DNA from: an uncultured Chloroflexia bacterium
GTDB lineage: Bacteria > Chloroflexota > Anaerolineae > CG2-30-64-16
Direction: 5' to 3'
Assembly: GCA_963774265.1 (NCBI GenBank)
Contig: CAVZDU010000001.1
Coordinates: 32,001 to 96,000, forward strand
Length of the DNA stretch: 64,000 nt
Below, piece by piece: positions 41,783-62,666 of this stretch. Numbering within the stretch: position 1 is the stretch's first letter; the number at the start of each line of letters is the position of its first letter. Under the pieces are notes generated by a model. That model saw only the letters and a list, made by a program, of their open reading frames with translations, made no database searches and was not told the origin of the DNA. The position numbers were made by a program, and so were the translations under genes.

Positions 41783-41786
41783 CTGC

Positions 41787-43292
41787 TCAGCGCCTCACGA
41801 ACGGGGCAAAAACTACCGCCTTAGGATTGATAACCGTAATGGGTAAGCCTGTCGAGCCTGCGCGCACTGTAACGGTGCGAGTGCCCGGCTTCAGCGTTGC
41901 ATCCGCAGTCAACTTGATCGTCGAAATACCCCAGGGTGGGTTCATCGTCGAAGGACTGACCGTCCCCCGCACCCCCGAGGGCAGCTCCAGGGCGATTGAT
42001 GTTTGCGCCGATAACCCATAGCCCTGCAATGTAACGGTTGTCGATGCGCCTGGACGGAGCAGAACGACGCTGCTGCTGAGTATAAACGGCTGACTCGGAT
42101 TCGAACAAAGGGCGTAGGGTGGTGTAGCCTGCGCCACGGTGGGCAGCCCGTTTGTGTATGTACTCGTGCGAACGGTGTTCACATAAGCGTCGGTGATCTT
42201 GCGTCCCGCATCACCCGGCAGCGGCTGCACACCGGTGCAGCCTCCGCTATTCTGACAGTCCTGTCCACCCGTGGTCACTCGGAAGTCCGCGTTGCCACGG
42301 CTACCATACGCGAAATCGTTGAACCAGACAATTCCCCGCACAAATGGATAGTCAGCCAACTTGGTGTACAGGTTCGTGATCCAGGCAGCCTTAGCAGAAC
42401 CGCTCCCATCCTGATCGACGGATCCGATTTCCGAGATAATCACCGGTTTAGCATAGCGACATGCCAGATCGCGGAGGACGCCATCATACAACACCTCGAA
42501 GCTTTCCCAGGGTCGATCGCGCCAACTATACCAATTGTACCCGCTAAGACCGATCCAATCAACATAGGCGTCTCCGGGATAGTAGTTGTGAAGGCTATTC
42601 CAGGCTTCGTCTGGGTTGCTGGCGTAGTTCGGTGACCATATCCACTCGACGTTGTTGGCGCCCACCTCACGGAAGAGGTTCCGGACGCGCTGGAACATGG
42701 CAACATAGGATCCTGCATCCAGTCCATACCGTCCCGGCCACCACGCCACGTCGCTGATGTTCATTTCATGAGCGAAACGGATGATGAAGCGTTCCGGGCG
42801 CGCTTTGAGGGCCCGTGCATAGCTGCGAATATAACCATCGCAGCGCCCCGCGTTTACGGCGCGCAACGGCCCTTGCCCGTCATTGAAACCCAAGTCGCAT
42901 CCAGAGCTGTTAGCCGTGGGTTCCCATGCCAGGAGGATTGTCGGTCGACGTCCTTCCGGTACTTTGTTCAGAATATCATCGAGCAGGAATGGATCGAATG
43001 CAGACCAAGGGGTGAAGAAGGCGACAATCGCAAGATCCTTGCCGACCAGGCCATTGTAGGCCATGACCTCGTTGCCGTAGGAGTACCAATTGCCGTTGCC
43101 GTAATCGACAAACACAGGCCGCAGATGGGCGCCGTGTGCGATGCCAAGCACGCCCGCAACTGGGACGGCATCCGGACTCTCGGATTGAGGAATATCCTGT
43201 GCAAATCCCACGAGAGAGCTCGTGATGAAAAGCACTATAATTTGAGTCAACAGTAGGTAGAAGGCGCGAACGCGCCTGTTTTGGCCAGTCAT
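41787..43292 (-). CDS. Secreted GH26 (beta-mannanase-like) hydrolase with Ig-like tail and C-terminal VFAPFVRR motif
   Basis: Signal peptide; RFAHEMN, WSPN, YYPGDAYVDWIGLSGYN, KPVIISEIG. Confidence 0.9.
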   Translation of the reverse strand: MTGQNRRVRAFYLLLTQIIVLFITSSLVGFAQDIPQSESPDAVPVAGVLGIAHGAHLRPVFVDYGNGNWYSYGNEVMAYNGLVGKDLAIVAFFTPWSAFDPFLLDDILNKVPEGRRPTILLAWEPTANSSGCDLGFNDGQGPLRAVNAGRCDGYIRSYARALKARPERFIIRFAHEMNISDVAWWPGRYGLDAGSYVAMFQRVRNLFREVGANNVEWIWSPNYASNPDEAWNSLHNYYPGDAYVDWIGLSGYNWYSWRDRPWESFEVLYDGVLRDLACRYAKPVIISEIGSVDQDGSGSAKAAWITNLYTKLADYPFVRGIVWFNDFAYGSRGNADFRVTTGGQDCQNSGGCTGVQPLPGDAGRKITDAYVNTVRTSTYTNGLPTVAQATPPYALCSNPSQPFILSSSVVLLRPGASTTVTLQGYGLSAQTSIALELPSGVRGTVSPSTMNPPWGISTIKLTADATLKPGTRTVTVRAGSTGLPITVINPKAVVFAPFVRR

Positions 43293-43319
43293 GAAAACCT
43301 CGCTGGTTTTGGTTACTTA

Positions 43320-44333
43320 CTACTGGGCGTCGGTATGCGTGCGAAGTCGCTCCTGGCGAGAGAGACCCCGGCGAAGGGTAACGGGCAGCCGGTGCAACTC
43401 GGCTCCCACAAAAGTCCCCAGCGCTGAAGCCAGATGCCAGGAGGGGCTATGTGCCATCCAGAAGAGTCTACGCCCCAGTGACTGATGTTTGAAAGGCTCT
43501 ATCGTGTAGGTGAAGCGCCAATCCGCCAGCACCTGCCTCGGGATACCGGCAAAGAGCCGCAACCAGTTGCGCCATCCGTGATAGACGTTACCGGGGAACA
43601 ACTCTTTCATCCCGGCAGCGTGGTCCACATTCTGCCGAAACTGTTCCAGAACGGGATAGTCGTGCGAGTGCACAACAGCCGAAGCAGGTTCGAATACCAG
43701 GCGATAACCCGTCTGGAGCGCTCGGTCGGCCCAGTCCGCGTCTTCTGCGAAATCGACAGCCCGAAATGGAACCTGCGCCCAAGCGCTGCGCCGCAGAGCC
43801 GAACTTGTATCAGAAAAGTAAACGTAATACAACTTGTCTCGTTGGTAAAGTTGCCTATCATCCGGCATGGCTTTGACCAGTCGCTCGTGACCCCCCGTTT
43901 GCCAAACGGTCAGCAATTGACGGGCGAGTGCTGGGGCGGCGTCAGGCCGTGGGATATGCCGGCTGAAAACGCCACCCACGGCCGGGTCCTCCTGCATTGG
44001 TCGTATCAGATGCGCCAGCCACAGTTCATTTGCTGGCGTTGCGTCTTGCGTCAGGTAGACAAGATACTGCGAATCCGGGTAAGCCAGTTTTGCCCCCAGA
44101 TTACGCGTCTCCCCGTGATTGAACTCCTCCGGCGGAATCTCGTGCAGTTGGAGAGGAAACCTCCGCAAGACTTCCTTCGACCGGTCTCCCGACCCTGAGT
44201 CGATTGCGATGACTTCGAACGGGCCGGCGTCGCGCTGTGCAAAAACGCTGTTAAGCAACTCTCCAAGGTAGCGTTCCCCATTCTTGACGAGGATGATGAT
44301 TGAAGAGGTTGGGAGATGTTCCAAGTCCTTCAC
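43320..44333 (-). CDS. GT2 glycosyltransferase (rhamnosyltransferase-like)
   Basis: IDSGSGD, FNHGETRN, LTQDA, FAED, VVHSHDY; GTG start overlaps the upstream stop. Confidence 0.9.
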   Translation of the reverse strand: MKDLEHLPTSSIIILVKNGERYLGELLNSVFAQRDAGPFEVIAIDSGSGDRSKEVLRRFPLQLHEIPPEEFNHGETRNLGAKLAYPDSQYLVYLTQDATPANELWLAHLIRPMQEDPAVGGVFSRHIPRPDAAPALARQLLTVWQTGGHERLVKAMPDDRQLYQRDKLYYVYFSDTSSALRRSAWAQVPFRAVDFAEDADWADRALQTGYRLVFEPASAVVHSHDYPVLEQFRQNVDHAAGMKELFPGNVYHGWRNWLRLFAGIPRQVLADWRFTYTIEPFKHQSLGRRLFWMAHSPSWHLASALGTFVGAELHRLPVTLRRGLSRQERLRTHTDAQ

Positions 44334-45436
44334 CCTCTGCCAACCATGCTGCTTTCGAGGGCCCCCAGCCACAAGGTCGCTCCCTGCGCCAACGTCCTCT
44401 TTTCGTATAAGTAGCGTTGCGCCGCGTAGGCAATCACACGTGCCTGAGCCGGGTGCGTGATGAGATGCACCAGCGCCTCCTCCCAGGCGTCCGCGTTGTT
44501 ATCGACGAGCCACCCTGTCACACCCTGCTGAACGCTCGAAGTATACGCCGGCACCCGGCTGAAAACGCCTGCAGCACCGATCGCCGCATAATCCAGGAAC
44601 TTGATATCCGATTTGTAACCGTTGAAAGTTGTGGCCACAAGGGGCGCGAGCGCGATGTCCCAGCGGCACGATGCGCAGAACCAGGGCAGAAAGGCCGGGT
44701 ATTCCGCGAAAACCGGTCCAGGGTTGCGTTCATAGCATGGCATACCGTAGAAATGCGACCAGGTCTCAATACGGGTGGCAACCCCCACGATCTCGATGCG
44801 AATCTGTCCCTCGTATCGCTTGCAGATGGAACGCAGGGCCGGCACGATCAGGTGCAAATCATCATCGTGCGTCCGCGTCCCCATGTAACCGATGGTCACA
44901 GATGTGTCCTGGATGCTTCGTTGCCGCCAGGCGGATATCCAGGTGCGATAGTCTTCGACCAGCGCGCTCCTGGAAGGAGTCAACAGGCGCTCGTCAAGGT
45001 AATTGGGGATAACCAGGACGTGTGGGTTGAACTCCTGCAGTGCACTTCTGAGTGCGTCGGTACTCACAATGATTTGATCCGCGCTCCGCAGGAAGACATT
45101 CAGCGCATCCAATCGCGGCTGCGTCAGGTGGAAGTCCTTGCGCTCGCTCTGCAGTGCAATCAGATTGTCATCCAGGCTGTAAAAGAGCCGTGCTCCCCCG
45201 CGCCGCACCTGGTCGATCAACTCGCTGGCCACTTCAAACGATACATCGGGGCGCCACAGTCTATCCACTACGACCACGTCCACCCGGTCCATGCACAGTT
45301 CTCGCCCAGCCGACACACGCACCCAGGGCTGTAGACTGGGGTGGGTCAATGGTCTCAACAGGCGGGCGTGCGAATGGGAATATGGAAGGCCGTCGTGGCC
45401 ATGTTCGTACAGGACGTGCAGGCGACAAGGTCTCAT
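44330..45436 (-). CDS. GT-B fold glycosyltransferase
   Basis: SLDDNL, IGYMGTRTHDDDL, WDIALAPL...FNGYKSDIKFLDYAA. Confidence 0.88.
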   Translation of the reverse strand: MRPCRLHVLYEHGHDGLPYSHSHARLLRPLTHPSLQPWVRVSAGRELCMDRVDVVVVDRLWRPDVSFEVASELIDQVRRGGARLFYSLDDNLIALQSERKDFHLTQPRLDALNVFLRSADQIIVSTDALRSALQEFNPHVLVIPNYLDERLLTPSRSALVEDYRTWISAWRQRSIQDTSVTIGYMGTRTHDDDLHLIVPALRSICKRYEGQIRIEIVGVATRIETWSHFYGMPCYERNPGPVFAEYPAFLPWFCASCRWDIALAPLVATTFNGYKSDIKFLDYAAIGAAGVFSRVPAYTSSVQQGVTGWLVDNNADAWEEALVHLITHPAQARVIAYAAQRYLYEKRTLAQGATLWLGALESSMVGRG

Positions 45437-45535
45437 GTGAGCTCTCGTGCATAATTGAACGAGATCCTCATGGTTTCCAACGCATCGAGCATCAAAAGGA
45501 AACGGTCCACGCGCAACACATCCATGGATTTAGCA

Positions 45536-48500
45536 TCAGGCGAAGAGCGTCTGGAGGATATTGTATGTCGGAAGCTCGGGGTGGTAGGCGCACACTTCGG
45601 CCGTGCCTGCCTTCTGCAGGCGCTGCCTGAGGCTATGATCCTCCACCAGCCGCGTGAGTGCGGCCGTGCACGCGTCAGCCGAACCAGTATCGACCACCAG
45701 GCAGTTGTGATTGTGCCTGGCAAACGCGCTCGTGCCGCCCGCCTCCGGAACAATCACCGCCGCTCCGCTCGACATTGCTTCTTGGGCGGTGATCCCCAGC
45801 GCTTGAAAGGTGGAGAAATCCACAAAAATGTCGACCTCGTTCAGAAAGGACGCGACCTGGCGTTGGTTGAGGGCGCCAGCGAGGCGCCAATTGAAGTCCC
45901 TGGGCAGTTCAAGGAATCCGGGCTCCAGCGGATTCGTGCCGAAAAGGCGAATTTCGACGCGTGCGCCGAATTTGTGCTCGACCACGCGCAACACTTCCAT
46001 CGTCAATCTGGGCGCACGATGCGGCGTCATCGGACGAATCATTGCCGCAACCCGGAGAGGACGATCCGGCCACTCCGGAAGGGCACGTGGTCGCGGGCCG
46101 GAAGAGGGTGGCATTGTAGCAAGGGCCTACCAGCCCACACTCCATGCCCGTGTTGCTGATCACCTCGTTCCGAATCCACTCGGTGGTCGCAAATCGCACC
46201 ATTTGGGGAATGACCGAATACGAGGCCCAGGCAAGTTTGTAATCTGCGCTGGTGGGCTGATAAAAGTAGGGTTCGAAATCCTGAATGAAGTAACCGAGAA
46301 CAGTCAGCGGGGCCTGGGTGGCCAGCGGCAGCAACCAGAATGCACTGACATTGGCCGTGGCAATGACGGCGTCATACTGTGGACCGAGGCGACCCACGTC
46401 CTCGGGTTGTCCATAGAAAACGGGGATGTCAAGCCCGGGGTAGATGCGTTCAAAATCCTCGCGGTACTCAGCGAGATTGAATATGCTGACGTCGACGCCC
46501 ATGTCGCGCATGATGGCGGCCTTGGAGACGATCACCGCGCCACCACCGCCCGATGTCCGAACGGGTAGGACCCAGAGGACTTTGCGGCCACCGAAATTCT
46601 CCCGGCCCTGGCGCAACAGGGCTTCCTTTTGAGGCAGGACCGCCGCGTGCCCACGAATCCCTTCCAGCACACGATCGCCAGCGAGAAAATCTACGCCGGC
46701 CTGCACGCTGCGAGCTCCATGCTTCCGCTTAAGCGTCTCGTTGGCTCGATCGCATAATGCCCGTCGTTTCTCGTCGCTGTAGCTCTTCGAGCCAGCGTGA
46801 TAGACGTAAGTATCGTCGGCCAGTGCCAGCAACCAGCCACTTTTCCGCGCACGGAGGCAGTAATCATTCTCCTCGCCGTATCCAGCGCCGAAACACTCTT
46901 CGTCGAGGTAGCCGGTGTTGTCGATCACTTGCCGCCGGATCAGCAGGCAGAAACCATTGAGGAACGGCAAGCGCGGATACGACCGGGCAGAGTAGCGGGC
47001 AACGGTCTCGGCCATCGCGGTTACGGTAAGACCTTCGGGAAGCAGGTTATTAGCCCAATCAGCGCCGTCATACACCTGCGGAATTGACTGCCAGGTCGCG
47101 GCATTGGACAGCGGACCGACGATGCCTATCTGCGCGTCTGAAACCATGCACGCCACGAGGCGGTCAAGCCAGCCGGGGCCGACAACAGTGTCGCTGTTCA
47201 ACAGCAGGACGAAGTCAGCCGTTGAATGCTGCAAGCCCTGGTTCGCCGCGCGGGTATATCCGCGCGGCTGTTCATTCCGAATCAGCAGGAAGCCCGATGT
47301 TTGCGCCGATTCAGTGAGATAATCTGCGGTCGGTGCGTCACTGCCATCATCGACCAGGATGACCCGGTAGGGCGGCGAACTGTAAGACTGCAGTGACTCC
47401 AGACAAAGCTTCACGTCGTCCAGCGCGTTATGAACACAAATAACGATATCAACTACTGCCGCATGGGGAGGAATGGAGGGTGGCGCCGGCACATCATGGA
47501 TCACCAGTTCCGAGGCGCCCTTTGCAGTGCTTGTTTTCCAGCGCGCCTTACGCCACAGTGCCCCCAGCTGTTGATCGACCTCGTAGCGCAGGCGGTGGCC
47601 GTGGACATGCAGCGCCTCACGGTTGTGCAGCCGGATCAGCTGCCAGGCAGCATCCAGGATCTGGTCACGCGAGCTGCGGGGAGGAGCGATCGAGTTGCGT
47701 GCTCGCTGCAGAGTGCGAACGAACGCGTATCCGGGCGTACTCTCAAGCTCACTCCAGCGCTGGTGCCAACGGCGCAACTCCTGGTCCTGCTCAGTCAGTT
47801 CCCCGGTCACATCGCTCAGCGCCTGAGCCAACTCATCCGCCGGTCTTTCGTTCAGCCGCACTGAAGAGGCTGGCGTGGATTTGACAGCGCCTCCCGAGGG
47901 TTGCCGTAGTTCCAAAGCAAGGGCGCGCAGGTCGCGGTTTTCCTTACGCAGCACCCAGTAGCCGCGCTCATAATCGCGGATGATGCGATGCAACGGTTCC
48001 TGGCGCCGTCTGAGCCGAACCGCCCATTCTGTGATGAACGAGGCATCAAAATCCACATCGCGATAAAAGCCCTGCTGTGCAAACAACTCAGCCCAGTATT
48101 CCGGCGGCTGCACATTGAAATGGGTGACCTCTTTGTAATCGAAAGGGGTGGAGGAAAAGAGAATGTCGTCCGTGAAAAGACACAGATTCGCGATCGCTGC
48201 CCGCGCTTCATCCGCTCGCATGTGTTCCAGAACTTCAATTGAGACGATCAGATCGTAGCGCCGAGGCAGGGGCTCGGCAATCGAGCCTTTTTCGCAGTAG
48301 GGCCGGATAGAGGGGTGGACATTATCGATGGCAAAGGCAGAGACATCCCGGCCGTAGGCCTCCACGCCTCTACCCCGCAACCCTTCTACCAGAAAGCCGA
48401 GCGCGCAACCGGCATCCAACACACTCTGCGGACCGATATCAGCAATGATGCGGTCGGCAATACCTCGAAAGAATGCTAACCATTCTTCGTCACGTTCATA

Positions 48501-48566
48501 TTTGCGACCGCACCCGGTCGCGTAGTAGCGCGCATCGAACACCTCGGCCGGGGTCACTTCCGTCAT
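45536..48566 (-). CDS. Multidomain SAM-methyltransferase - coiled coil - GT2 - GT4-like protein; apparent +1 frameshift near 46096
   Basis: VLDAGCALG and EVLEH (methyltransferase); heptad region; DIVICVHN, VDDGS, LLNSD, GYGEEND (GT2); SGGG, YFIQDFE, then after the shift QALGITAQEAM (GT4). Confidence 0.88.
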
Positions 48567-52010: not shown

Positions 52011-52130
52011 CTCCCAAGGTCACAAAAATACCTCAGCCTGATCTGGTAGATCGGCCGAAGCTACGGAAAATGATTATAGTCAGAAACACGGATTCAAAAA
52101 ACTTGCGGTGCAGGTCGCGCGTGAATGTAT

Positions 52131-53606
52131 CTATTTGGCCGGCAGTGTGAAAGCGAATACGTTGTCTGCCTCGTCCCGCTCCGCAACCAGATTGGCGGGA
52201 TCGACGACTGCCCACAAGTCGGCCTGCGCACTTGGCGCGCCAACCCAGTTCGCGGTGACCGTTGACGTTGCTCCGCAGCCTTCGAGAACATACACAAACC
52301 GTTCGGCGCCGATCGGAGTCCCGCCCTGCAGAGGATTGCCACGATAGAACTTCACCCCAAACATACCCGGTATGGCCGAATTACCGTTGTTCGCGACGGT
52401 AACAGACAGGGTGACCTGCTCTGTGCCGGAACCAGCCTCGCGCGTAGCCGATGCACGGACTGGTTGCAGATTAACATCGCCCGGATACCGGGCGGCAAGC
52501 GCGGCGAAGTTATCCCCATAAACGGTGCGCTGCCGGGTCAACGGACTGAACAGCATGCCGTTGTACCCATCGCTCAGGCTATACCACGCCCAGGCTTGGA
52601 CGAGGCGGTCATTGTCGGGAGGATAGCCGTTTGGTCCGGTCGCTGAATTCAGGAACTCAAAAGCTCCGGTCATGAACGCATTCACGCGAGCGGGACCAAA
52701 GCCGGAGCCGTAATCCTCTGGCCAAAGAATGCCGAACTCGGTAATGATCAGTGGGCGATCTTGATAGTCGCGGTCAGCCATCCACTGCCGGAATGTTTCG
52801 ATGAAGTCCTTAAAGATGTCCAGGCGATCGTGATCGTCGATTTCGTAGAGCATCCCTTCGTCTGCACGGATGCCCGGCGGTATGTCTGCGCCCCAAGAAT
52901 CAGGCCAATCACCGCGTCGCTCCCGGAGGATGAAAGCATGGATGTTCCAGACATCGACAGGCATCGCCGGCTCGTCGGGGTTCGGCCGGCCGTAGAGCCT
53001 CTCGTACTCCTGCAACACCATATCGAGATACTGAAGGCGCAGGGGTGTAGGTTGGACGACGGCGCCGATGGCGACCCGGGCGGTGGGGTCTACCTGTTTG
53101 ATCACCGTATACAGATCATGATAGGCTCGCGCATACGGGCCCGGCTCGATGCTGTCTTGCCAGTACCTGCGATCAGGTTCATTGCCGATGATCCACAACG
53201 CCCCGACCCGGCCAGCCACGATTTCCGGCAACTCATCCGCTGTGGGCTGAGATGCGTAACCATCATTGCCGATTTGCGACAGACGGATCATGGGATGATA
53301 GGTGATTCCGTCGGGCTGCGCTGGATTTGGCGTCGTCGTCCAATCGAGATACCAGCCCAGCCGCAAGGCCCGAATCGGATAGGCGGCAATGGCGGAAGTA
53401 CCGCCGACGCCCAACCGGCACAACTTCTGGCTTGCAGGGATCGCGGTGTTCGCGATCGCTGGCAGAAGGAGCCGGCCCTGTGATTGCGGCGCCTGGAGCG
53501 TGACTGCCGGCGCTGCTTGCGCCGAACTGACTCGCAGCAACAAGATCAGAGGCAAAAGCCAGAATACGGATATCGCCGCAATCCGCAAGGGCCGCACCAA
53601 TGTCAC
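52131..53606 (-). CDS. Secreted clan GH-A glycoside hydrolase with C-terminal CARDB domain
   Basis: Signal peptide; IGNEPD (acid/base), WNIHAF, PLIITEFG (nucleophile); V.NNG...VVDPANLVAERDEADN. Confidence 0.8.
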   Translation of the reverse strand: MTLVRPLRIAAISVFWLLPLILLLRVSSAQAAPAVTLQAPQSQGRLLLPAIANTAIPASQKLCRLGVGGTSAIAAYPIRALRLGWYLDWTTTPNPAQPDGITYHPMIRLSQIGNDGYASQPTADELPEIVAGRVGALWIIGNEPDRRYWQDSIEPGPYARAYHDLYTVIKQVDPTARVAIGAVVQPTPLRLQYLDMVLQEYERLYGRPNPDEPAMPVDVWNIHAFILRERRGDWPDSWGADIPPGIRADEGMLYEIDDHDRLDIFKDFIETFRQWMADRDYQDRPLIITEFGILWPEDYGSGFGPARVNAFMTGAFEFLNSATGPNGYPPDNDRLVQAWAWYSLSDGYNGMLFSPLTRQRTVYGDNFAALAARYPGDVNLQPVRASATREAGSGTEQVTLSVTVANNGNSAIPGMFGVKFYRGNPLQGGTPIGAERFVYVLEGCGATSTVTANWVGAPSAQADLWAVVDPANLVAERDEADNVFAFTLPAK

Positions 53607-54988
53607 GGCATCTGCTCTAGATAAAGCGGTTGCTGGCTCACCGTGAACCGCACAAAGCCATCCGATGAGCCATCGTCGCCGTCCCGCAGAATGCCCTGGA
53701 CGACGCCCAGCGAATCTGACACCTTGAGGTTATCTCCCGCCAGCTTCAGTGTGACGGGACTGAAGGTGTCTGTCCAGGCCACATACAACTTGTGACCCGC
53801 CTTAAACTCATACACATGCTCGTCTTCGCTTCCCCCTCTCTCGTTCTGGGGAACCGCGCGCAAGAAGGTGGCGCCACTCAACTTGCCCGCCATGGAGCGA
53901 TACGCATCGAAGGAAGGTTTCCGCACCCCCGCAGCCGTCAGCAGACCCGTTTCGCCCCAATAATCCGGCAGATCGAGCCAAGACCACCAGATCATAAGCT
54001 GGTTGCCTGCAGCCGCGGATTGCGTGGACATCTTCACCAGGTAATTGGCCTGCACTTGTGGCGAGCTGGGCTGCGATGGCTCGGCATCGCTGTGGTGCCC
54101 GGCCTCAGTGACGATGATAGGCATCCACCCATACCCGTATCTCGACAATATATCGCGCAGGTAATTGGTCTTGCCCATCAGGCCGTCGCCGTATGGCTTC
54201 CACCGCCACTCGAAGTACGGGTAGTAGTGGAAGTTCATCAGGTCCATGCAGTTCCCGCCGCCGTTCTTCAACACGTCCTCGATGAAGCTGCGAACAAACG
54301 GACCCCTGTCCTCTTTGAAGAAATCGTACGCGATGCCGCCGATAGCAACTCTCGCGCTCGGGTTCGCTGCCTTGGTTGCACGGTAGGCAGTGCAAAGCAT
54401 GGCCGCATATTCCTTGCCGTATGGACCCCAGAACGGCTGGACTCCTTCCGCTCCGACAACATCGCCGGCATCGGGCTCGTTGTAGAGTTCCCAAATGCGA
54501 ACCTTGGGCGAGCCGGGCGCATCCTGATTACCGTCGCCGTCATAGCGTTCGACCAGCGCGCCCATGAACTGGCCGAATTCATCCAGCCCGACTTTGTCAA
54601 TGGGGCCATTGGTATAGGTGGCCGCCCACTTCGGAGCCCGTTCAATCGTCACAAGCGGACGCAGATTGAGCTGCACTGCGGCCAGCATGGACGCATCCAT
54701 CGAGGACCAGTCGTATTTGTCCGGCGTCGTGTTATTTGGCTCAACACTCCCCCAGAACACGCGCCAGCGCAACCAGTCCACCCCAGCCTCTGGGGTGTCC
54801 GCGGCATACTGATCGGTGACGGCGCCGTACATTTGGACCCCAAATGCAGGCACGGGTTTCTGGTTGAAGACCGCCGGAAGCGTCAACGTATTGCCGGAGC
54901 CCGCCTGGTCAACAGGTGTCTGGGCGGCCGCTGATGCGGGACAAAGACAGGCTAGGCAGCAGAGTGCCACAACGAGAAAACGCAGCAT
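53603..54988 (-). CDS. Secreted GH39/GH5-like glycoside hydrolase
   Basis: Signal peptide ending ASA-AAQ; ERYDGDG, WELYNEPD, NFHYY, PIIVTEAG, KPSF.AY. Confidence 0.82.
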   Translation of the reverse strand: MLRFLVVALCCLACLCPASAAAQTPVDQAGSGNTLTLPAVFNQKPVPAFGVQMYGAVTDQYAADTPEAGVDWLRWRVFWGSVEPNNTTPDKYDWSSMDASMLAAVQLNLRPLVTIERAPKWAATYTNGPIDKVGLDEFGQFMGALVERYDGDGNQDAPGSPKVRIWELYNEPDAGDVVGAEGVQPFWGPYGKEYAAMLCTAYRATKAANPSARVAIGGIAYDFFKEDRGPFVRSFIEDVLKNGGGNCMDLMNFHYYPYFEWRWKPYGDGLMGKTNYLRDILSRYGYGWMPIIVTEAGHHSDAEPSQPSSPQVQANYLVKMSTQSAAAGNQLMIWWSWLDLPDYWGETGLLTAAGVRKPSFDAYRSMAGKLSGATFLRAVPQNERGGSEDEHVYEFKAGHKLYVAWTDTFSPVTLKLAGDNLKVSDSLGVVQGILRDGDDGSSDGFVRFTVSQQPLYLEQMP

Positions 54989-54993
54989 ACCTT

Positions 54994-56037
54994 TCACCTT
55001 TTGGATACAAGTGGGAGGTAGATGGAGTAAGAATAAGGCGCACACCAGCGCACGAGCCGGTTCTGCGCGTTATCTGCCAGCCAACCACATAGGTTTTCGT
55101 CAAAGGACAGCCCGGTGAAGCCGGCGCCGGGCGCCGGTAGCTCTCGGACCACCGTCGATGAGGGACCCAGCCAGCCTACTCGTTGCCCGGTCCGCTCGGT
55201 AAACCAGATTCGTCCCCCGGCCAGCTCGATCGCATAGGGATTACTCCCCGCGACAGACAGGCCAACCCATCGCAGAAGAGTCAATGTGCCGGGGTCATAG
55301 TGGCCGATTCGATTGCCGGCCCGATCCGTAAACCAGGGATACGCACCGGTCTCGACGCTGATATTCCAGGGTTCACTGGCTGCGCCTGTGTAGACGAAGG
55401 CAAACGCAAGATCACCCGGCCACAGGTTCAAGTTAAACCGGCCGATTTGGCTTGTGCCGGGCGCAGTGAACCACGCAATCCCATCGCCAGCCAGATCAAT
55501 GTCTTCAAACTGCGCACCCGGCGTTGGAGATGCATACTCGGTGAGAGTGGCCTCACCCTGAATGGGAATCACCAAACGGCCGACCTTGTTCCCGGTGCGC
55601 TCGACGAACCAGACCTCGGTTGGATCGCCTGGTTGCACGTCCAACCCGGTGGGTTCACTGGCGAGCGTGGGGATCGCGTATTCAGTCCAGCTTGTCATGG
55701 CAGGATTGAACTGCGCGATCTTGTTGCCGGCCCGCTCCGTCACCCAGACCAGCTGATCAGCACAGGCGATATCGTAAGGTTGGCTTGCTGGGGTAGGCAG
55801 GGAAAACGTTTGAACGGCGACGCTCGGCGCCAGGCTTAAGCGGCCGAGCATATTCTGCTCCGGCAGCGTAAACCACACCGTGTCAGGTGACTGGGCGCAG
55901 ACCCGAAAGGGCTGGCCAGCACCAATCGGGTACTCGGTGAATACCCCTGCAGCGGCTTGCGCTGCGACTTGTGGCGCACCAAATGCGGCCGCGAGGACCG
56001 CCCAGAGCACAACCACAATGGCTGGTAAGGTCGCCAT
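54994..56037 (-). CDS. Secreted Vgb-like beta-propeller protein with C-terminal YLPLVSKR motif
   Basis: Signal peptide; repeated P..I......WFTE..GN.IG blades; SD GGAGG. Confidence 0.85.
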   Translation of the reverse strand: MATLPAIVVVLWAVLAAAFGAPQVAAQAAAGVFTEYPIGAGQPFRVCAQSPDTVWFTLPEQNMLGRLSLAPSVAVQTFSLPTPASQPYDIACADQLVWVTERAGNKIAQFNPAMTSWTEYAIPTLASEPTGLDVQPGDPTEVWFVERTGNKVGRLVIPIQGEATLTEYASPTPGAQFEDIDLAGDGIAWFTAPGTSQIGRFNLNLWPGDLAFAFVYTGAASEPWNISVETGAYPWFTDRAGNRIGHYDPGTLTLLRWVGLSVAGSNPYAIELAGGRIWFTERTGQRVGWLGPSSTVVRELPAPGAGFTGLSFDENLCGWLADNAQNRLVRWCAPYSYSIYLPLVSKR

Positions 56038-56069
56038 GGAGGACCTCCGATGCCAATCTATAGCAGGAC

Positions 56070-56588
56070 CTAAGGCCAAGCCAGTTCAAGTTTGCCCAGG
56101 TCAACGCGTTCATCGGCCTTAATGGAGAAAACCCGAGGCGAATCCTCTGAACGCGACTGCGGGATGACCAGCCAGTTCAATGGAGCCCATATCACGAGGA
56201 AATAATCCCCAGGCAGCACATTGTTCAGCAAAAATCGTCCCTGCTCATCTGTCTTACCGCTGATATCGCCTTGTTCAGGCCGGGCGCTTCCCATCACCGC
56301 AGGCAGTTCAGTTGCACTATCCTGCAAGTGATAGAGATAGAAGTAGGTCCCAGGCACGGGGCCATTGCCGGTGTAAGTGAAGATTTCCCCGCCGACCGTG
56401 GCCTTCCCGGCTTCTGACGCAGGTAGTGGGAGAGCATTGTTGGCGACAACGGGAGGCGGCAGCGGCGAAATCGGCGATTCGGTCGCCAACGGGGGCATGG
56501 TTGTTGCTGGTAAGCTACTGCAGGCAGCGAACACCCACATCGTCATCAGCAGGACAAAGACAATCCACCAACTCGATCTTGTCATCAT
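56070..56588 (-). CDS. Lipoprotein with Pro-rich linker and carboxypeptidase-regulatory-like beta-sandwich
   Basis: Lipobox FAA-C; SPISPLPPP linker; TDEQGRFLLNNVLPGDY. Confidence 0.8.
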   Translation of the reverse strand: MMTRSSWWIVFVLLMTMWVFAACSSLPATTMPPLATESPISPLPPPVVANNALPLPASEAGKATVGGEIFTYTGNGPVPGTYFYLYHLQDSATELPAVMGSARPEQGDISGKTDEQGRFLLNNVLPGDYFLVIWAPLNWLVIPQSRSEDSPRVFSIKADERVDLGKLELAWP

Positions 56589-56621
56589 TCTTCTAAGTAT
56601 AGACTAAAATCGCCCACACGT

Positions 56622-56654
56622 AAAACTGGCCAGCCGTTGGTGCGGCTGGCCAGT
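56622..56654 (-). terminator. Intrinsic terminator after the repeat surface-protein gene
   Basis: ACTGGCCAGCCG-N6-CGGCTGGCCAGT with a T run on the minus strand. Confidence 0.85.
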
Positions 56655-56687
56655 CCTTACAGGCTGAACCTACAGGATCGCTAAAGG

Positions 56688-58118
56688 TTACGGCTGCGTG
56701 AAGGCATTGTGTGCCATGAAGTTGTCACCGCTGGCCAGGCTTGGGTTGATGGATGCCAGGAACGTGAGCTGAGCGAAGCCCGCCAGCGCATGGTCCGAGT
56801 CCACCACCAGGGTGCCATTCCAGCCATCGGGCAGTTCCGGCACTGCCGTGCGGTGATTCTGGATCAGGTTGCCACCCGCCGGGATCGACGCACTAAATGA
56901 GATCGGGGTTGCGCTGCCGCCAGCTGCGATGTATTCTGCCGAAGGCGTGTACGTCAAGGTCGCGTTCGCTGCGTTGGCCGTATCCAGGTTCTGGACCGTG
57001 ATCGCGGTCGCGAACCCGTTCGGCAGGCGCTTGGCAACCAGCGGGACAACGACCTTCGTATCGGTCGAGCCGCCCCGGAAAGCCTCGTAAGCCGCCGCTT
57101 CGCCGGTGGCCACAAAGCGCATCTGGACGAACGCCACGACGTTGCCCGTCGAAGTGACAACACAAGAACCCGTGTACAGCGCAGGAACGGTCATGTCGGT
57201 CACAGGGTTGACGGCCCAGGCGGCCTTGTTCGGAACGGCGTCCGCGTTGGTCTTACTAAACGGATTCGCGTTGTTGGTGTCTTTGCAGTTCACGGTGATG
57301 CCGCCGGCCGCAATCGGACCGCCGCTCAGGTTCTGGACCGAGATCGGCGTGCTCAGGCTATTCGCCAGGCGGGACGTGAAGAGCGGGACGAACCACTGTT
57401 GCGCCGGTGCAGACACCGGGAAGGCGTTGAAGGTCTGCATCGCGTCGCCGGTGAAGAAGTTGGCGACGACTGCAACCTGCCCGCCACTCAGCGCGCGCAC
57501 TTCGGCGGAACCGATGAAGCCATCGCTCAACCCGGGTTCGGTAGCGAGATCGTACAGGAACGCTGCGTTCGGTGCGATCGCAATGCCGGTCTTGGTGAAG
57601 CCGGCGCCGCCGACACTGGAGAGCAACTCAACTTCCACGCTCACGGAGGCCGTGCCCGAATTCTGGATCACGATCTGGCTATTGGCAAGGCCCGTTGCGG
57701 TGGGCCGATTCTTAGCTGCCAGCGGAACATAGAAGGACGCGGCGCCGGCCGAGAAACCGGAATAAGCGCCGCTGCTGGTCGGGTTTTGACCACGTGCGAG
57801 GACCTGGACAACCGCGCCCACAGACTTATCGGCGCTCACAACAACCGAGCCACGGCCCGCAGCGAGAGCCGAGTCAAGGTACTGGCGGAAGATTTTCTGA
57901 CCGCCATTGGCTGCCAGCGTGAAGCTCTCATCGGCTTTCCACACCGTGCCATCCGTCTTGAAGTATTGCACGGTGCCGCCTGCCGGTTCACTTTCAAGGT
58001 TCACAAGTGTGAAGTTGGTGCTCAGGCTCTTGGTGGTCGACTGCGCCGCACCCGTAAGTACTGTCGCCAGTATCAGGGTGAGCGTGAGAAGGGTGATTGA
58101 GACGGTCCTTCGCTTCAT
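56688..58118 (-). CDS. Secreted 476-aa protein with four ~110-aa beta-rich repeats; candidate S-layer/major surface protein
   Basis: Sec signal; four repeats with (I/V/L)QN-type...GS/GT..V.S...VxxV motifs; A/T/S/G/N-rich; own promoter, AGGAGG SD and terminator. Confidence 0.7.
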   Translation of the reverse strand: MKRRTVSITLLTLTLILATVLTGAAQSTTKSLSTNFTLVNLESEPAGGTVQYFKTDGTVWKADESFTLAANGGQKIFRQYLDSALAAGRGSVVVSADKSVGAVVQVLARGQNPTSSGAYSGFSAGAASFYVPLAAKNRPTATGLANSQIVIQNSGTASVSVEVELLSSVGGAGFTKTGIAIAPNAAFLYDLATEPGLSDGFIGSAEVRALSGGQVAVVANFFTGDAMQTFNAFPVSAPAQQWFVPLFTSRLANSLSTPISVQNLSGGPIAAGGITVNCKDTNNANPFSKTNADAVPNKAAWAVNPVTDMTVPALYTGSCVVTSTGNVVAFVQMRFVATGEAAAYEAFRGGSTDTKVVVPLVAKRLPNGFATAITVQNLDTANAANATLTYTPSAEYIAAGGSATPISFSASIPAGGNLIQNHRTAVPELPDGWNGTLVVDSDHALAGFAQLTFLASINPSLASGDNFMAHNAFTQP

Positions 58119-58182
58119 AAGATTGCCTCCTGCGGAACGATAGGTCGAGTTGACGAGGTCTTGGGGACTTCGTACCGGGCCT

Positions 58183-58211
58183 AGTATGGACGCTGCGCGG
58201 CTAAAAAGCAA
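58183..58211 (-). promoter_or_regulatory. Sigma70-type promoter for the repeat surface-protein gene
   Basis: Minus strand TTGCTT (58211-06), 17-bp spacer, CATACT (58188-83); SD AGGAGG at 58131-26. Confidence 0.6.
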
Positions 58212-58243
58212 TACCCCAAGTGGGTTAACTATGCCCGCGCGGG

Positions 58244-59215
58244 TCAAACAGGCGTATCTTCCCGCCCTTTTCGCGTCGCGCGGAGCGCAAAGCCTGCCAG
58301 CACCCAGGCAAGTTCGGCCAGGACCATGGCCAGTCGCGAGATAACTGCGACGAGGCCCCCCATCGCCACGGGCAGACCGGCCGCTTGTACCAGGACTGCC
58401 GACATGACCGCCTCACGCACACCAATGCCAGACGGGACAAAGAGGATAAGAAACCCGACTGCCCACGAGGCCGAGGCTGCCAGCGCGCTGACGCGTAGAT
58501 CGATGCCGGATCCCGGAGCCACGGCCCGGGCAACCCAATAGACCGACGCGGCATAGGAGAGCCAAAGCGGCACTGTCAGCGCCAACGCGGCGACCCACGC
58601 GCCGGGCTGCGGCGCAGAAGGAAACGCCAACCGCCTGAACCGCCTGCCAGCCCATTCCACAAACCGCGGCGCGAGAAAGACGGCCAGGCACATCAAGATG
58701 ATGGACCCGACGGGCGCAACGTGACGCCAGGGTTCTCCGAGAAGCGGCCCGCCAGTGACTCCGACGCACGCGATTGCTGTCACAAGGATCGCGGCTGCTT
58801 CGAGCACCGACCCGGTCAACGAGAGGGGATAGCCCACACCGTGGTCGTCCAGCAGCCACTGGCTTCGGCTCAAGTAGCCCCACACGGTGCCGGGGATGTA
58901 GCGGGGCAGAAAGGAGATCATAAACCCTTCTGTCGTCTCCCGCAGGGTGAGGGCCACGCAGAGATAACGCATGATGGCGCGCCAGGCCACCATCTGGAAA
59001 GCGGAAAGTACGAGCGCTGCGACGAATGCCGGGATCAATTGCCCAAGCGAAAGCTCGCCCAGGCCATCATACTGTTGCACCGCGAGCCAGGCGATCCGCA
59101 GCTGGTTGGCGAACAGCCCCAGGCCGAGCACCAGGCCAACGCGCCAGAGGACCGCGCGCAGCGACCAACGTGACCGCCCCGGGCGACCGCTGTCCGGGTC
59201 AGGAAGCATGGTCAT
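58244..59215 (-). CDS. Lysylphosphatidylglycerol-synthase-TM/UPF0104 flippase-like membrane protein
   Basis: RYIPGTVW, VPSGIGVREA, SR motif; about eight TM segments. Confidence 0.85.
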   Translation of the reverse strand: MTMLPDPDSGRPGRSRWSLRAVLWRVGLVLGLGLFANQLRIAWLAVQQYDGLGELSLGQLIPAFVAALVLSAFQMVAWRAIMRYLCVALTLRETTEGFMISFLPRYIPGTVWGYLSRSQWLLDDHGVGYPLSLTGSVLEAAAILVTAIACVGVTGGPLLGEPWRHVAPVGSIILMCLAVFLAPRFVEWAGRRFRRLAFPSAPQPGAWVAALALTVPLWLSYAASVYWVARAVAPGSGIDLRVSALAASASWAVGFLILFVPSGIGVREAVMSAVLVQAAGLPVAMGGLVAVISRLAMVLAELAWVLAGFALRATRKGREDTPV

Positions 59216-59967
59216 GAGCTTACGCCTGGCTTCCAGAGAAGCCAGTTGAAATTTGGAAAAAACGGCAACGCCGAGCGCCAGATCCACCGGGGAAGTCTCC
59301 GCCCGAGGCGCGCGATCGGGCGCGTATCCGCGGCCAACTGGCTCTCCAACACTTCGAGCGTCACATCCTGGATATCAAAACGCTGCCACAGGCGACGCAA
59401 GCCCCACATTGGCCGGGAACGTTCGTAGTAGCGATCCCCGCGGCGCAGAACGCGCAAAGTGGCGTTGGCCAGGGGGGAGGGCAGCCAATGCACAAAAGGC
59501 AGGTTGTAGTGAAGCTCGATCGGAAACAGCCAATTTGGACCGCTAAAGAAGACTACCCCTCCCGGCGCAAGTACACGGTAAATCTCCTCGGCTAGCCGCG
59601 TGTCGTCCGGAACGTGCTCGTACACCTGCGCGCACAACACCACGTGAACGGATGCATCAGCGAGCGGCAAACGCATCGCGTCACCCCGAACGAAACGCAC
59701 GGCGGCGCGACCCTCGAGCGTCGTTGCGCCGAGCGCCAACGCGTCATATTCCACGCCGACCATCGTGCGAAAAAGTGAGGCTAATGAGGCGCTGATCAAG
59801 CCCGAGGAGCAGCCGATGTCCAGGCAGACTGCTTCAGCCAGAGGCCACGCCACGTGCCGTTCGAGGAGCATCCGAATCTTCGCTGCACGTCGCGAGCGGC
59901 TGGTCGCGTCCCGTACGGCGGCGGATAACTCATAGAAACCGTCCTGATAACCGCGCGGCTCAGCCAC
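59212..59967 (-). CDS. Class I SAM-dependent methyltransferase
   Basis: CLDIGCSSG, GDAMRLP, VYEHVPD, RVLAPGG. Confidence 0.92.
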   Translation of the reverse strand: MAEPRGYQDGFYELSAAVRDATSRSRRAAKIRMLLERHVAWPLAEAVCLDIGCSSGLISASLASLFRTMVGVEYDALALGATTLEGRAAVRFVRGDAMRLPLADASVHVVLCAQVYEHVPDDTRLAEEIYRVLAPGGVVFFSGPNWLFPIELHYNLPFVHWLPSPLANATLRVLRRGDRYYERSRPMWGLRRLWQRFDIQDVTLEVLESQLAADTRPIARLGRRLPRWIWRSALPFFPNFNWLLWKPGVSS

Positions 59968-61153
59968 TGACGCCTCGGTAAATTTCGACCAGTCGAGCAG
60001 CGATGATATCCCAATCGTACTCCTTTTCTGCCCGGAGTCGCGCAGCCCGGCTCATGGCCTGCCAGCCAGGGTCGTCGCTCAAGACCGCCGTGATAGCCTC
60101 GGCCAGCGCCTGGGGCTGCGCAGGTGGCGCCAATTTGCCCACCTCCTGCGTGACGACGTCGACGATGCCATCTACAGCGCTCGCGACAATGGGAGTGCCG
60201 CACGAGAGTGCTTCCAGGAGGACCACGCCCAGCCCTTCCTCCAGGCTCGGCAAGACAAACAGCCTCGCCCGGCGCATCGCGGCCACGACTTCCGCCTGCG
60301 GCAGGAAGCCCGCCATGTCGATGCGATCGACGATGCCCAACGCCGCGGCCTGTTCGCGGAGCGCTTGCTCATCCGGCCCATCGCCCAGCATGACCAACCG
60401 ATAGCCAGGAAGGGCTGTGAGGACAGATGGCATGGCCTCGATCAAATGGTTGGCGCCCTTGCGCGGAATCAACGAGCCCACAAACAGAATCAGAGGTTCA
60501 CGTTCCGCCACTGGCGCCGGGGTGAACCGCCCGGTATCGACGCCATTCGGTACGATTGTCAGGCGGTCCATCGGTATGCCGGTGCGTGCGGTCGCCTGCG
60601 CCAGCGCGCGGCTCAGTACCAGCACGCGGTCGCAGGCCCGCAGTGTGGCCGCGGTCAGCCGGCGCCCGAGCCCGCTTCTTGTCACCTGAAAAATGTCGCT
60701 GCCCTGCAGAGTGGCAACGACCGGCCGGCGGTGGACGGGCCGCGCAAGCACAGCCGCAAGCGCCGACAACGTCCAGTTGGCATGCACCACGTCGCAATCA
60801 CGTGCCCACCGTGCGATCGCCAACACGTGCGCCAGGCCAAAAGGCACGAACAGCAACCGGGCCAGCTTGTTACGTCGCCAGATGATGGGCAGTCCACCGC
60901 CTTCGCGTCTCAGGATCTCCCAGTTCTCCCTGGGCATATAGCGCGGGCGGATGACCTCGATGCCTTCAAGCGTCTCATGCGTGGCCGCGCCCGGTGCGTG
61001 CATCGCGATCACGCGGACCGCAGCTCCCGTCCGGCAAACGGCGCGGGCGGCCTCCCAAACAAAACTGCCCTGCGCGTCGCCGGCCCAGCGGGGAAACGCA
61101 GTTGTAACGATACAGACTCTCAATTTGCGATCCATTTCCCTCAAGGGGTTCAC
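59960..61153 (-). CDS. GT4 glycosyltransferase
   Basis: GSD, VPNGVD, RKG, EGLGVVLLEA (EX7E). Confidence 0.93.
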   Translation of the reverse strand: MNPLREMDRKLRVCIVTTAFPRWAGDAQGSFVWEAARAVCRTGAAVRVIAMHAPGAATHETLEGIEVIRPRYMPRENWEILRREGGGLPIIWRRNKLARLLFVPFGLAHVLAIARWARDCDVVHANWTLSALAAVLARPVHRRPVVATLQGSDIFQVTRSGLGRRLTAATLRACDRVLVLSRALAQATARTGIPMDRLTIVPNGVDTGRFTPAPVAEREPLILFVGSLIPRKGANHLIEAMPSVLTALPGYRLVMLGDGPDEQALREQAAALGIVDRIDMAGFLPQAEVVAAMRRARLFVLPSLEEGLGVVLLEALSCGTPIVASAVDGIVDVVTQEVGKLAPPAQPQALAEAITAVLSDDPGWQAMSRAARLRAEKEYDWDIIAARLVEIYRGVSG

Positions 61154-62666
61154 CTGCTCGATGCCGTACGCTCCAGGTAAATGGGCGACCAGCCAACGGC
61201 AAGCCGCCCTCCGGGCACGGCCAGCTTCTGACCGAATTTATCGTAAGCCGCGAGGAAGCCGGCCGGCAAAACCAGGCTGACATCACTTCCATCCGTGGAC
61301 CAAAGGATAAGCAACTGCCGCCCGTCCTCTTTCCCAAACTGTTGCCCCGACACACCCTGGAACTCGGTCACTGCGCGCTGATAGCGCGCCCGGCCGAGCT
61401 GGCTGCCCAGGTACTTGTACGCGGCGAAAGCCGGCTTGGGCGTAAGGTCAGGGAGGATCAGCCCCTTGTATTTGAACTCCGTGATCAGTGCATAGTAGGT
61501 CGCACCGGAAAGACCCAGGCCGTAGGCCTCAGCGTAGACGCGCGGGATAAAAGCGGCCCCAACCTCGTTACATTCCGGTGTGGGATCGTCGCATTTCAGC
61601 GCAACCTCGCCTGCAAACACGGGCTTCTTGTCAAACCCGTAGCGTGCCAGTATCCGCCGCACGAACCCGACTTTCTCCGGCAACCCCGTGCCGCCACCAG
61701 CCGGATCGCTCCAGGCATAGTAGCTATGCATGCGCTGTGGAAGATCCATGCGCAGAACTGCGTAGGAATGCACATCCACCATGTCGAAGTAGGGTCCGCC
61801 GCCATTGCGCAGCACGCCTTCCAAGAAATGACCCGAGGCCCACCGCCGTTCGTTGTCGCAGCCGTTACCTGGCGACGTCGTCTCAGGGTCACACTCGAGC
61901 AATAAGCCGGCCATCATGACCTGCGCACCGGGATCTGCCGCCTTGATGCGAGGGTAGACAACCTTCAGCATGTCGGCATAGTAAGGTCCACCATAGTATG
62001 GATCGTTTGGATCGCCCCAGCAGCCGAATGGCGCATCCCCCCACACCTCGGCCGGCGCCACGTCCGGCTCATTGCCGATCTGCCAATGGCGCACGCCGTA
62101 GCGCGTCTGGCTACCATAACGAGCCACCACTTGTTCCATGAACCGCGCAAAGGCCTCGAACTTGTCGCGCCTCACTGGACCGCACGGATACGAAGCAACA
62201 CCCTGCGCCCACGTTGGCGTCATTTGGATGTTGATGATCGGCTCGAAAGCGTCCGCGGAGCGCGCAGCAACTCCTGTTCAAGTTGGGCGAGCACTTCCCA
62301 ATGGTTCTGCCCTTCGACCGGCTCTACTTCCAACCACGAAAGCTCCCGATAGCGCCGCACCCAACGCGCGCCGAGCTGTTGAATGCGGTCGTAAGCGTAC
62401 TGGTTGGCGAATCCTTCAACTGCCACACCCAGCAGTGGCGCGGCCGCGCGATCCCTGTTCGCTGCGACTGGCAGTTGGGTCCGCTTCGCAGGCGCCGGGG
62501 TTGCCTCGGCTGCGGGTTTGCTGCGAATCACCGGTTTTGCGGTAGGGGTTGGTTTCGGGGCAACCACAAGGTCGTCACCAGGCGGCCATCCGGGAGTCAG
62601 GCCGGCAAAGATGGTGACGACTATTGCGAGCACGATTCTGGCAGCGATCATTGGCTGAGACTCCAT
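61150..62666 (-). CDS. Secreted GH39-like glycoside hydrolase with an apparent frameshift near 62245-62258
   Basis: Signal/TM, P/T linker and GARWVR...W.EVEP..G join FEPIINIQMTPTWA...WQIGNEPD...DVHSY...KPVFAGE...KPAF.AY. Confidence 0.8.

Follow-up and report, generated by a model that had tools for sequence, protein, structure and literature searches.

The stretch analysed here (the window) is a 64,000-nucleotide piece of contig CAVZDU010000001.1 from an uncultured Chloroflexia bacterium (GCA_963774265.1; G000:C1:32001-96000 in our files). The source assembly comprises 5.51 Mb in 10 contigs, has a G+C content of ~62%, and is 84% complete and 5.65% contaminated. An earlier note on this DNA had proposed that five secreted proteins encoded here carry a short hydrophobic Leu-Pro tag at either end, and that the tag works as a binding strand. 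The best explanation of the five strings is that they are copies, intact or decayed, of the Chloroflexota YLP-box, a linear motif in flexible linkers of secreted proteins. All five peptides were recovered exactly on translation, with coordinates recomputed, and all lie on the minus strand, as does every gene in the finding. The strings are:

54997..55020, minus strand: YLPLVSKR followed by the stop codon, a canonical C-terminal YLP-box on a beta-propeller (translation; gene 54994-56079)
41790..41813, minus strand: VFAPFVRR followed by the stop codon, a variant C-terminal box on a GH26-like protein (translation; gene 41787-43292)
53448..53471, minus strand: LLLPAIAN, a probable decayed N-terminal box on a 491-residue hydrolase with a CARDB domain (gene 52131-53606)
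54857..54886, minus strand: LTLPAVFNQK, a probable decayed N-terminal box on a GH5-like hydrolase (open reading frame 53603-55045)
62454..62480, minus strand: TQLPVAANR, a probable decayed N-terminal box on the 5' piece of a frameshifted hydrolase (62220-62666 plus 61150-62223)

The propeller is a secreted, Vgb-lyase-like protein of 361 residues (Pfam Vgb_lyase, 1.7e-35), and the GH26-like protein has 501 residues (Pfam GH26, E = 3.3e-5). The three N-terminal strings lie 10-25 residues past signal peptides on TIM-barrel hydrolases, and PF11790 and PF00150 were found in homologues of two of the three. The GH5-like open reading frame (ORF) likely starts near 54988. The split hydrolase (61150-62666, minus strand) consists of ORFs of 148 and 357 residues with a frame change near 62230-62270, where ...LEQELLRA resumes in the other frame as ...EPIINIQMTPTWAQG; this gene is either a pseudogene or the product of an assembly error. 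The propeller and two box-bearing hydrolases form part of a row of genes on one strand, with gaps of at most 125 bp, that also holds a membrane protein, a secreted four-domain protein (the tetrad, described below) and a lipoprotein-like gene of 172 residues. The tetrad gene sits between those for the propeller and the membrane protein.

The motif was surveyed across the source genome using 4934 ORFs from a simple codon-usage caller with longest-ORF starts, which cover 86.5% of the genome. Its genome-wide consensus is (Y/F)LP(L/I/M)(V/I)x(R/K). The core [YFW][LV]P[LIMFV][LIVMFA] occurs 190 times versus 149 +/- 11 in shuffles, and the excess is concentrated at protein C-termini, where 29 of the 4934 ORFs have the core within 8 residues of the end (4.1 +/- 1.6 in 20 shuffles). 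Removal of six obvious non-tags from 35 looser matches gave a set of 29 C-tagged proteins with ends of the form (Y/F/W)(L/A/V)P(L/I/M/F/V)(V/I/L/M/A)x(R/K). The stop codon follows 0-5 residues past the basic residue, and no hydrophobic stretch comes behind the motif. A single N-terminal hydrophobic segment, our crude hydropathy rule for assigning signal peptides, is present in 19 of the 29 C-tagged proteins versus 569 of the 4905 other ORFs (odds ratio 14.5, p = 1.4e-11), and several of the remaining ten resemble fragments or mis-started ORFs. Pfam matches among the carriers (27 of 29 scanned) include S8 and C25 peptidases, penicillin amidase, beta-helix, VWA, FG-GAP, BNR/sortilin propellers, CBM96, cohesin, a PETase-like hydrolase, 5'-nucleotidase, InlB-B repeats, CARDB and DUF11; these families are extracellular enzymes and adhesins.

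A nine-column matrix built from the 29 tails produced 37 matches at 15 bits or more, compared to 4.6 in shuffles; the share of the 37 that is C-terminal is circular, as the matrix was made from those tails. Among windows directly after signal peptides, 12 of 560 reached at least 12 bits; the corresponding counts were 0.0 over ten shuffles and 4 among 2394 cytoplasmic windows taken as controls. A few further copies occur in internal linkers. Enrichment at C-termini, after signal peptides and in linkers indicates that the motif is real, that it marks exported proteins and that it is independent of position. Two expectations of the earlier note, enrichment in signal-peptide proteins and at termini or linkers and freedom of position, are thus borne out genome-wide, with ~29 C-terminal, 12 post-signal-peptide and a few linker copies.

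The motif is already catalogued. Two NCBIfam models, NF050076 (sort_motif_YLP, 11 positions) and NF053834 (ultrashort_CTERM, 10 positions), describe it under the shared name 'YLP-box putative sorting motif-containing protein', and they name the motif only, without a receptor or mechanism. The propeller tail passes both curated cut-offs, with 15.5 bits for NF050076 (cut-off 15) and 14.5 bits for NF053834 (cut-off 10), or 15.1 and 14.1 bits when given as a 50-residue piece. The GH26 tail and the three N-terminal regions had no match to either model at E values up to 10. The models also match several further tagged tails and, at other places in the genome, three N-terminal copies, mostly under the NF050076 cut-off. 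What had been described as a five-instance tag is a real genome-wide motif that was catalogued before, and only one of the five instances, the propeller tail, passes the curated models. A literature search, with most subscription journals outside its reach, found no paper on a bacterial YLP-box and no proposed mechanism.

Each window instance was scored with a matrix built without the two window proteins, and the 9-mers at or above that score were counted in real and shuffled sequences. The propeller tail scored 21.1 bits (13 real, 0 shuffled) and the GH26 tail 9.8 bits (149 real, 99 shuffled). Values for the N-terminal strings were 6.1 bits for the 491-residue hydrolase (678 real, 651 shuffled), 5.7 bits for the GH5-like hydrolase (782 real, 776 shuffled) and 2.9 bits for the split hydrolase (2418 real, 2644 shuffled). 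By their own letters these three are at chance level, in keeping with their earlier description as weaker matches. They were accepted because homologues have canonical boxes at the same site, which is their only validation.

For the 491-residue hydrolase, 68 of 120 listed homologues have a box of at least 12 bits in the first 110 residues. By eye the boxes lie at the same site, ~10 residues before a conserved RLCRFGVG (e.g., RVYLPLVIRDDPMRTQRLCRFGIG), and in close relatives they have decayed like the window box (RLLLPTVTN, RLSLPMVFN). A C-terminal box is present in 37 of the 120, and 16 of the 120 have a box at both ends. Homologues with both boxes include P0133, P0138, P0169, P0182 and P0192; their boxes are canonical, the N-terminal one follows the signal peptide, and the C-terminal one often has a three-residue extension (e.g., ...RLWLPLILKSAP). 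Homologues of the GH5-like protein have a canonical box before FGVQMYG in 63 of 120 cases and a C-terminal box in 0 of 120. For the 148-residue piece of the split hydrolase, five of 30 representatives reach at least 10 bits at the same site, and others have intermediate forms. GH26 orthologues from the same genus end in ...LIFLPSIRH and ...RLFLPGIRR. Comparison with homologues indicates that the three N-terminal window strings are decayed YLP-boxes and that the GH26 tail is a conserved variant.

The 491-residue hydrolase was modelled with AlphaFold2 (AF2) from the window sequence, with its decayed box, and a 66-row alignment rich in canonical boxes. The predicted local distance difference test (pLDDT) value was 90.2. 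Residues 28-57 have no secondary structure in the model, and pLDDT values were 39 and 49 for residues 31-50, which contain the box. In this one carrier, with its decayed box, the motif is predicted to be in an unstructured linker outside the catalytic domain, as had been claimed for all five strings, and not inside the catalytic fold.

The tetrad, encoded in the same gene row, has the following features:

56688..58118, minus strand: secreted protein of 476 residues with four ASRAH (ASRT/TM1070-like) domains, P0001, proposed as the tag acceptor (AF2, VIA-align)
57759..58043, minus strand: domain 1, residues 26-120, without strand 1, the predicted docking site (profile A3, AF2, complex model)
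57711..57737, minus strand: strand 1 of domain 2, SFYVPLAAK, YLP-box-like (AF2 strand E128-136; tag matrix 11.4 bits)
57369..57395, minus strand: strand 1 of domain 3, WFVPLFTSR (AF2 strand E239-249; Pro245 invariant in 47 sequences)
57027..57053, minus strand: strand 1 of domain 4, VVVPLVAKR (AF2 strand E355-362; P359, L360, A362 and R364 invariant)

The 476-residue protein matched no Pfam or NCBIfam family in scans and has no paralogue in the source genome. It has 463 homologues with 50-87% identity, every one labelled 'hypothetical'. Three of its segments, FYVPLxAR, WFVPLFTSR and VxVPLVAKR, are invariant. The AF2 model (pLDDT 91.1) consists of four beta-sandwiches, and the three invariant segments are strands in it. 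In VIA-align comparisons, residues 123-236, which include SFYVPLAAK, aligned with the whole of Thermotoga TM1070, an eight-strand beta-sandwich (1nc7_B; Z 14.6, root-mean-square deviation [rmsd] 3.2, 109 of 116 residues), and the tetrad aligned with ASRT, the transducer for sensory rhodopsin in Anabaena (2iia; Z 10.9, rmsd 1.8, 86 residues); the next unrelated rows had Z below 6. A Foldseek search with the whole tetrad model found only generic multi-Ig matches with low TM-scores. Of 17 domains, one matched PF07100 (ASRT; E = 0.0026, gathering score not reached) and three matched PF18986 (DUF5719; best E = 7.5e-4, under the cut-off). Because Pfam gathering scores were not reached, membership in the ASRAH superfamily rests on fold and motifs. 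The asparagine that ends strand 2 (the QN motif) is present in at least 90% of the single-domain alignment (A3), and N153, N263 and N377 are invariant in the whole-protein alignment (A1). Strand 1 opens with Y, F or W in most domains; domain 4 of the window tetrad has Val.

In the part of the superfamily's description available to us (De Souza, Iyer and Aravind 2009, PMC2739507), ASRAH domains have a near-invariant Asn at the end of strand 2 and a conserved aromatic residue that opens strand 1 and clamps both sheets, so the tetrad has the fold and both residues in common with the superfamily. The same part of the paper reports secreted dyads and tetrads, including some from Chloroflexi, with predicted sugar binding and linkage to glycosyltransferases, and describes amidase-fused tetrads and actinobacterial dyads. 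A stand-alone tetrad with a first domain short of strand 1, and detached strand-1 tags, do not appear in that part.

The first domain of the tetrad has no strand 1 of its own. In a survey of 28 four-domain proteins from the source and other genomes against A3, domains 2-4 mostly matched from positions 1-7, with few starting later, and domain 1 matched only from positions 11-16 in 24 of the 28. In three more tetrads the extra aligned residues of domain 1 were the end of the signal peptide, which brings the count to 27 of 28 on inspection. A single protein of the 28 has its own strand 1 on domain 1, and its genome has 0 tag matches. In the window tetrad the A3 match of domain 1 begins at position 14, AF2 predicts 7 strands compared to 9 in domain 2, and the mature protein begins no more than ~10 residues from strand 2. 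Domain 1 is therefore short of one strand, as are acceptor domains in donor-strand complementation systems.

The strand missing from domain 1 is the one that the YLP-box resembles. Distant tetrads have KFYVPVVMK, TVYLPYVVK and RLVLPLVMR at strand 1, and the first strands of distant relatives are tag-like (KFYVPVVMKGFYGYTTEISVQN, TVYLPYVVKQVG..VAVQN, RLVLPLVMRARNGWTTIISVQ). With a matrix made from tags only, 24 of 84 strand-1 windows reached at least 10 bits versus 0 of 84 mid-domain windows. This likeness and these scores indicate that the YLP-box is, in sequence, a detached ASRAH strand 1.

A complex was modelled between the tetrad (residues 26-476, with a 47-row alignment) and the propeller's 40 C-terminal residues. 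Interface scores (ipSAE) were 0.93, 0.95 and 0.96, compared to 0.00 for the best of three controls. When the tool was calibrated, 116 of 157 solved complexes and two of 215 mismatched pairs attained the mark, counts that are only rough here because our own alignment was supplied. At least 97% of contacts agreed among runs, and partner pLDDT was at least 62. The tetrad was contacted solely by propeller residues 348-361, the box-bearing tail. On the tetrad side the interface comprises residues 31-38, 47-52, 85-110 and 119-125, from domain 1 and the adjoining edge of domain 2, and the tightest predicted pairs join tetrad residues 91-94 with tag residues 353-356. In the published topology, strands 1, 3 and 4 from one repeat lie in a sheet together with strand 2 from the other. 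Residues 91-96 are the sixth strand of the fold, so pairing of the tag there fits the strand-1 slot, and the docked tag would probably occupy the strand-1 slot of domain 1. Strand-1 identity, a neighbour with a strand-less domain and a controlled complex model together lend in silico support to the earlier suggestion of a binding strand.

The distribution of tags and domains was compared across Chloroflexota. Tags were searched in DNA using the pattern YLP-(L/F)-(V/I/M)-x-(R/K/H/Q/N)-stop, with the reversed pattern as a control. The source genome has 6 matches versus 0 for the control, and the pattern is present in nine of 12 other genomes of the same family. In a phylum sample of 201 genomes, 18 genomes from several families and at least two classes have 3-15 matches; most others have 0-1, and controls had 0-2, with one outlier of 6 in one direction. 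The single-domain profile A3 matches 48 of the 201 genomes, including 17 of the 18 that are tag-rich compared to 31 of the 183 others. The whole-protein profile A1 was also tried as a phyletic marker and was replaced by A3, being too narrow (17 of 201 genomes); at E values up to 0.001 it matched only G121 (1.4e-5) among five tag-rich genomes tried and nothing in the other four. Separately, some Chloroflexota have ASRAH-domain expansions of 14 to 23 or more matches (G108, G134, G189 and locus L051 of G117:C32), with proteins of up to 2400 residues and 0-1 strict tag matches. All four ASRAH domains at L051, the first included, have their own strand 1.

Our preferred reading is non-covalent anchoring by donor-strand complementation, which we hold tentatively, at a little under an even chance. 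Under this reading, the tag would be a free-standing copy of the first strand in the ASRAH (ASRT-like) beta-sandwich, and the same gene row would supply its partner, a conserved secreted four-ASRAH protein whose first domain is without its own strand 1. By inserting into domain 1 in trans, the tag would tether hydrolases, proteases and adhesins to the tetrad without a covalent bond. The tetrad in turn would be kept on the surface polysaccharide made by the surrounding Wzm/Wzt cluster through its remaining ASRAH domains, for which sugar binding has been predicted in the literature. Binding in trans, retention of the tag uncleaved and sugar binding by the tetrad are what we infer from the observations above. 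The more general proposal, that Chloroflexota have a sortase-free display system in which a nine-residue tag at either end completes the strand-deficient first ASRAH domain of an adaptor held by wall glycan, is put forward with more caution still, as plausible yet rather less than evenly balanced.

Several points weigh against anchoring by donor-strand complementation. Every step of the mechanism is drawn from in silico work, and the complex score is the model's own confidence, which may echo the built-in strand 1 of domains 2-4. Neither NCBIfam model matches the tetrad's own strands. Thirty-one genomes have the domain with fewer than three strict tags, and domain 1 of their tetrads is also without strand 1; either the DNA pattern misses tags in those genomes or something else fills the site. 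One genome, G150, has three pattern matches and no domain match, although its controls gave 1 + 1. The contrast of 17 of 18 to 31 of 183 overstates the association because related genomes are non-independent. In this genome ~45 tagged proteins would share a single tetrad gene, and each tetrad offers one acceptor site. The decayed boxes of the operon-mate hydrolases may no longer bind. In a survey of related loci of at least 9 kb, with a tag threshold of 13 bits, only three of 45 loci have a C-tagged gene immediately after the tetrad on its own strand, and a fourth has one on the opposite strand, which is weak support for a link.

Sortase/LPXTG and exosortase/PEP-CTERM systems use tripartite C-terminal sorting signals that mark cell-surface proteins. 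The YLP-box is like these in being a short signature on signal-peptide proteins, often C-terminal and with a Leu-Pro core, but it has no transmembrane helix or charged tail and occurs at either end and in linkers. The YLP-box could accordingly be a sorting signal at which a dedicated sortase-like transpeptidase or peptidase cleaves and then releases or attaches the protein, a possible alternative that we consider unlikely. It would account for a motif at the extreme C-terminus of signal-peptide proteins with a basic end, its LPxV core resembles LPxT, the curated NCBIfam name says 'putative sorting motif', and the genome encodes one sortase and several secreted C25/S8 peptidases, some of which are tagged themselves. 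Neither a hydrophobic helix nor a charged tail follows any box, however, in agreement with the earlier claims that no transmembrane helix follows the motif and that it is not of the LPxTG type. The motif is also found after signal peptides, in linkers and at both ends of one protein, and in ASRAH domains this sequence forms a structural strand that is buried. Next after the single sortase gene (L041, G000:C5:52852-56334) comes a small ORF whose translation ends with ...ELPATGGCLQP. Complete LPVTG and LPTTG signals on two proteins elsewhere, ordinary substrates with a helix and basic tail, indicate that a conventional sortase system coexists with the YLP-box, and the sortase was set aside as the reader of the tag because its substrates are canonical. 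No candidate enzyme was found, although a systematic phyletic search for one was not made.

The three remaining alternatives are less well supported. The tag may bind a non-protein envelope polymer (wall polysaccharide or peptidoglycan) directly, with the ASRAH likeness being incidental or ancestral, which we regard as improbable. The location of tagged hydrolases inside a Wzm/Wzt polysaccharide cluster is consistent with this, the basic residue could pair with an acidic polymer, and the 31 domain-bearing genomes with few strict tags suggest loose coupling of tag and domain. A nine-residue hydrophobic strand would be an unusual glycan binder, however, the domain is present in nearly all tag-rich genomes, and the complex model gives a specific site on a protein while its controls score 0.00. 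Still less probable is a role for the tag within its own protein or in export, as an aid to folding or secretion or as a removable pro-segment that pairs with the carrier domain. Its fixed position ~10 residues before the first barrel strand in three hydrolase families could be read this way, but AF2 leaves the segment of the 491-residue hydrolase unstructured and at low confidence despite a box-rich alignment, the carriers have unrelated folds, and the tag is found at either protein end. That the boxes are functionless remnants of truncated ASRAH domains or chance matches is very hard to credit, for although the three N-terminal window strings score at chance and hydrolase boxes have decayed in this lineage, the C-terminal excess is sevenfold, boxes are kept at a fixed site in 63-68 of 120 homologues, several families of the phylum have them while controls are near zero, and a stop codon lies directly past the basic residue.

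Donor-strand anchoring has precedents of other kinds. In chaperone-usher pili an incomplete beta-sandwich is completed by the strand of another chain, and donor-strand complementation reportedly occurs in archaeal filaments, the cannulae. The tag would resemble these systems in that a strand from another chain completes an incomplete beta-sandwich; it would differ in that the donor is a tag on unrelated enzymes and the outcome is display of client proteins, not a filament. Cohesin-dockerin and S-layer homology (SLH)-type systems provide non-covalent surface display. As in those, many secreted enzymes would be held by one small module on a common surface scaffold, but the tag has about nine residues and no folded domain, and it would join the fold of the acceptor.

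As a catalogue entry the motif was known beforehand; what appears to be new is its connection to strand 1 of ASRAH, the absence of that strand from the first domain and the proposal of donor-strand anchoring. Little is understood of the Chloroflexota envelope, and the analysis addresses how hydrolases and proteases are retained at the surface of these abundant filamentous bacteria, supplying a specific and cheaply testable partner and mechanism for a putative sorting motif. If donor-strand anchoring is correct, the orphan YLP-box gains its receptor, display of client proteins becomes a new use of donor-strand complementation, and the working of the tag at either end is explained. The secretomes of Anaerolineae and Chloroflexia from soil, sludge and hot springs could be better annotated, and a natural, small pair of peptide tag and acceptor may serve as a compact tool. 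Should it be wrong, an explanation would still be needed for the census, the decayed boxes and the first domain without strand 1.

The genes for the tagged hydrolases and the tetrad are enclosed by a Wzm/Wzt-type ABC (ATP-binding cassette) polysaccharide export cluster (39480-52010 and 58244-61153, minus strand). Among the products of this cluster are an ABC-2 permease, an ATPase with a Wzt_C domain, GT2 and GT4 transferases, an LPG_synthase_TM-like membrane protein and an 885-residue fusion of a methyltransferase and GT2. Between the tetrad and propeller genes, the 172-residue protein (56070-56588, minus strand) combines a signal peptide that looks lipobox-like (..VFAAC SS..) with a weak match to fn3_3; at some related loci a small gene occupies the same position. 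Homologues of the tetrad and both hydrolases were listed with equal longest contigs from the same source (305364 and 25654), which suggests shared contigs. RNA evidence consisted of one run (8% of sampled words, contigs only), in which pieces 90-99% alike fell mostly on the tetrad gene; no conclusion on expression was drawn because contigs cannot rank genes. Outside the window, three near-identical ORFs of 443 residues (G000 C3:311476, C5 and C10) start with MALQFGGVREGDSS... and resemble copies of an insertion-sequence transposase.

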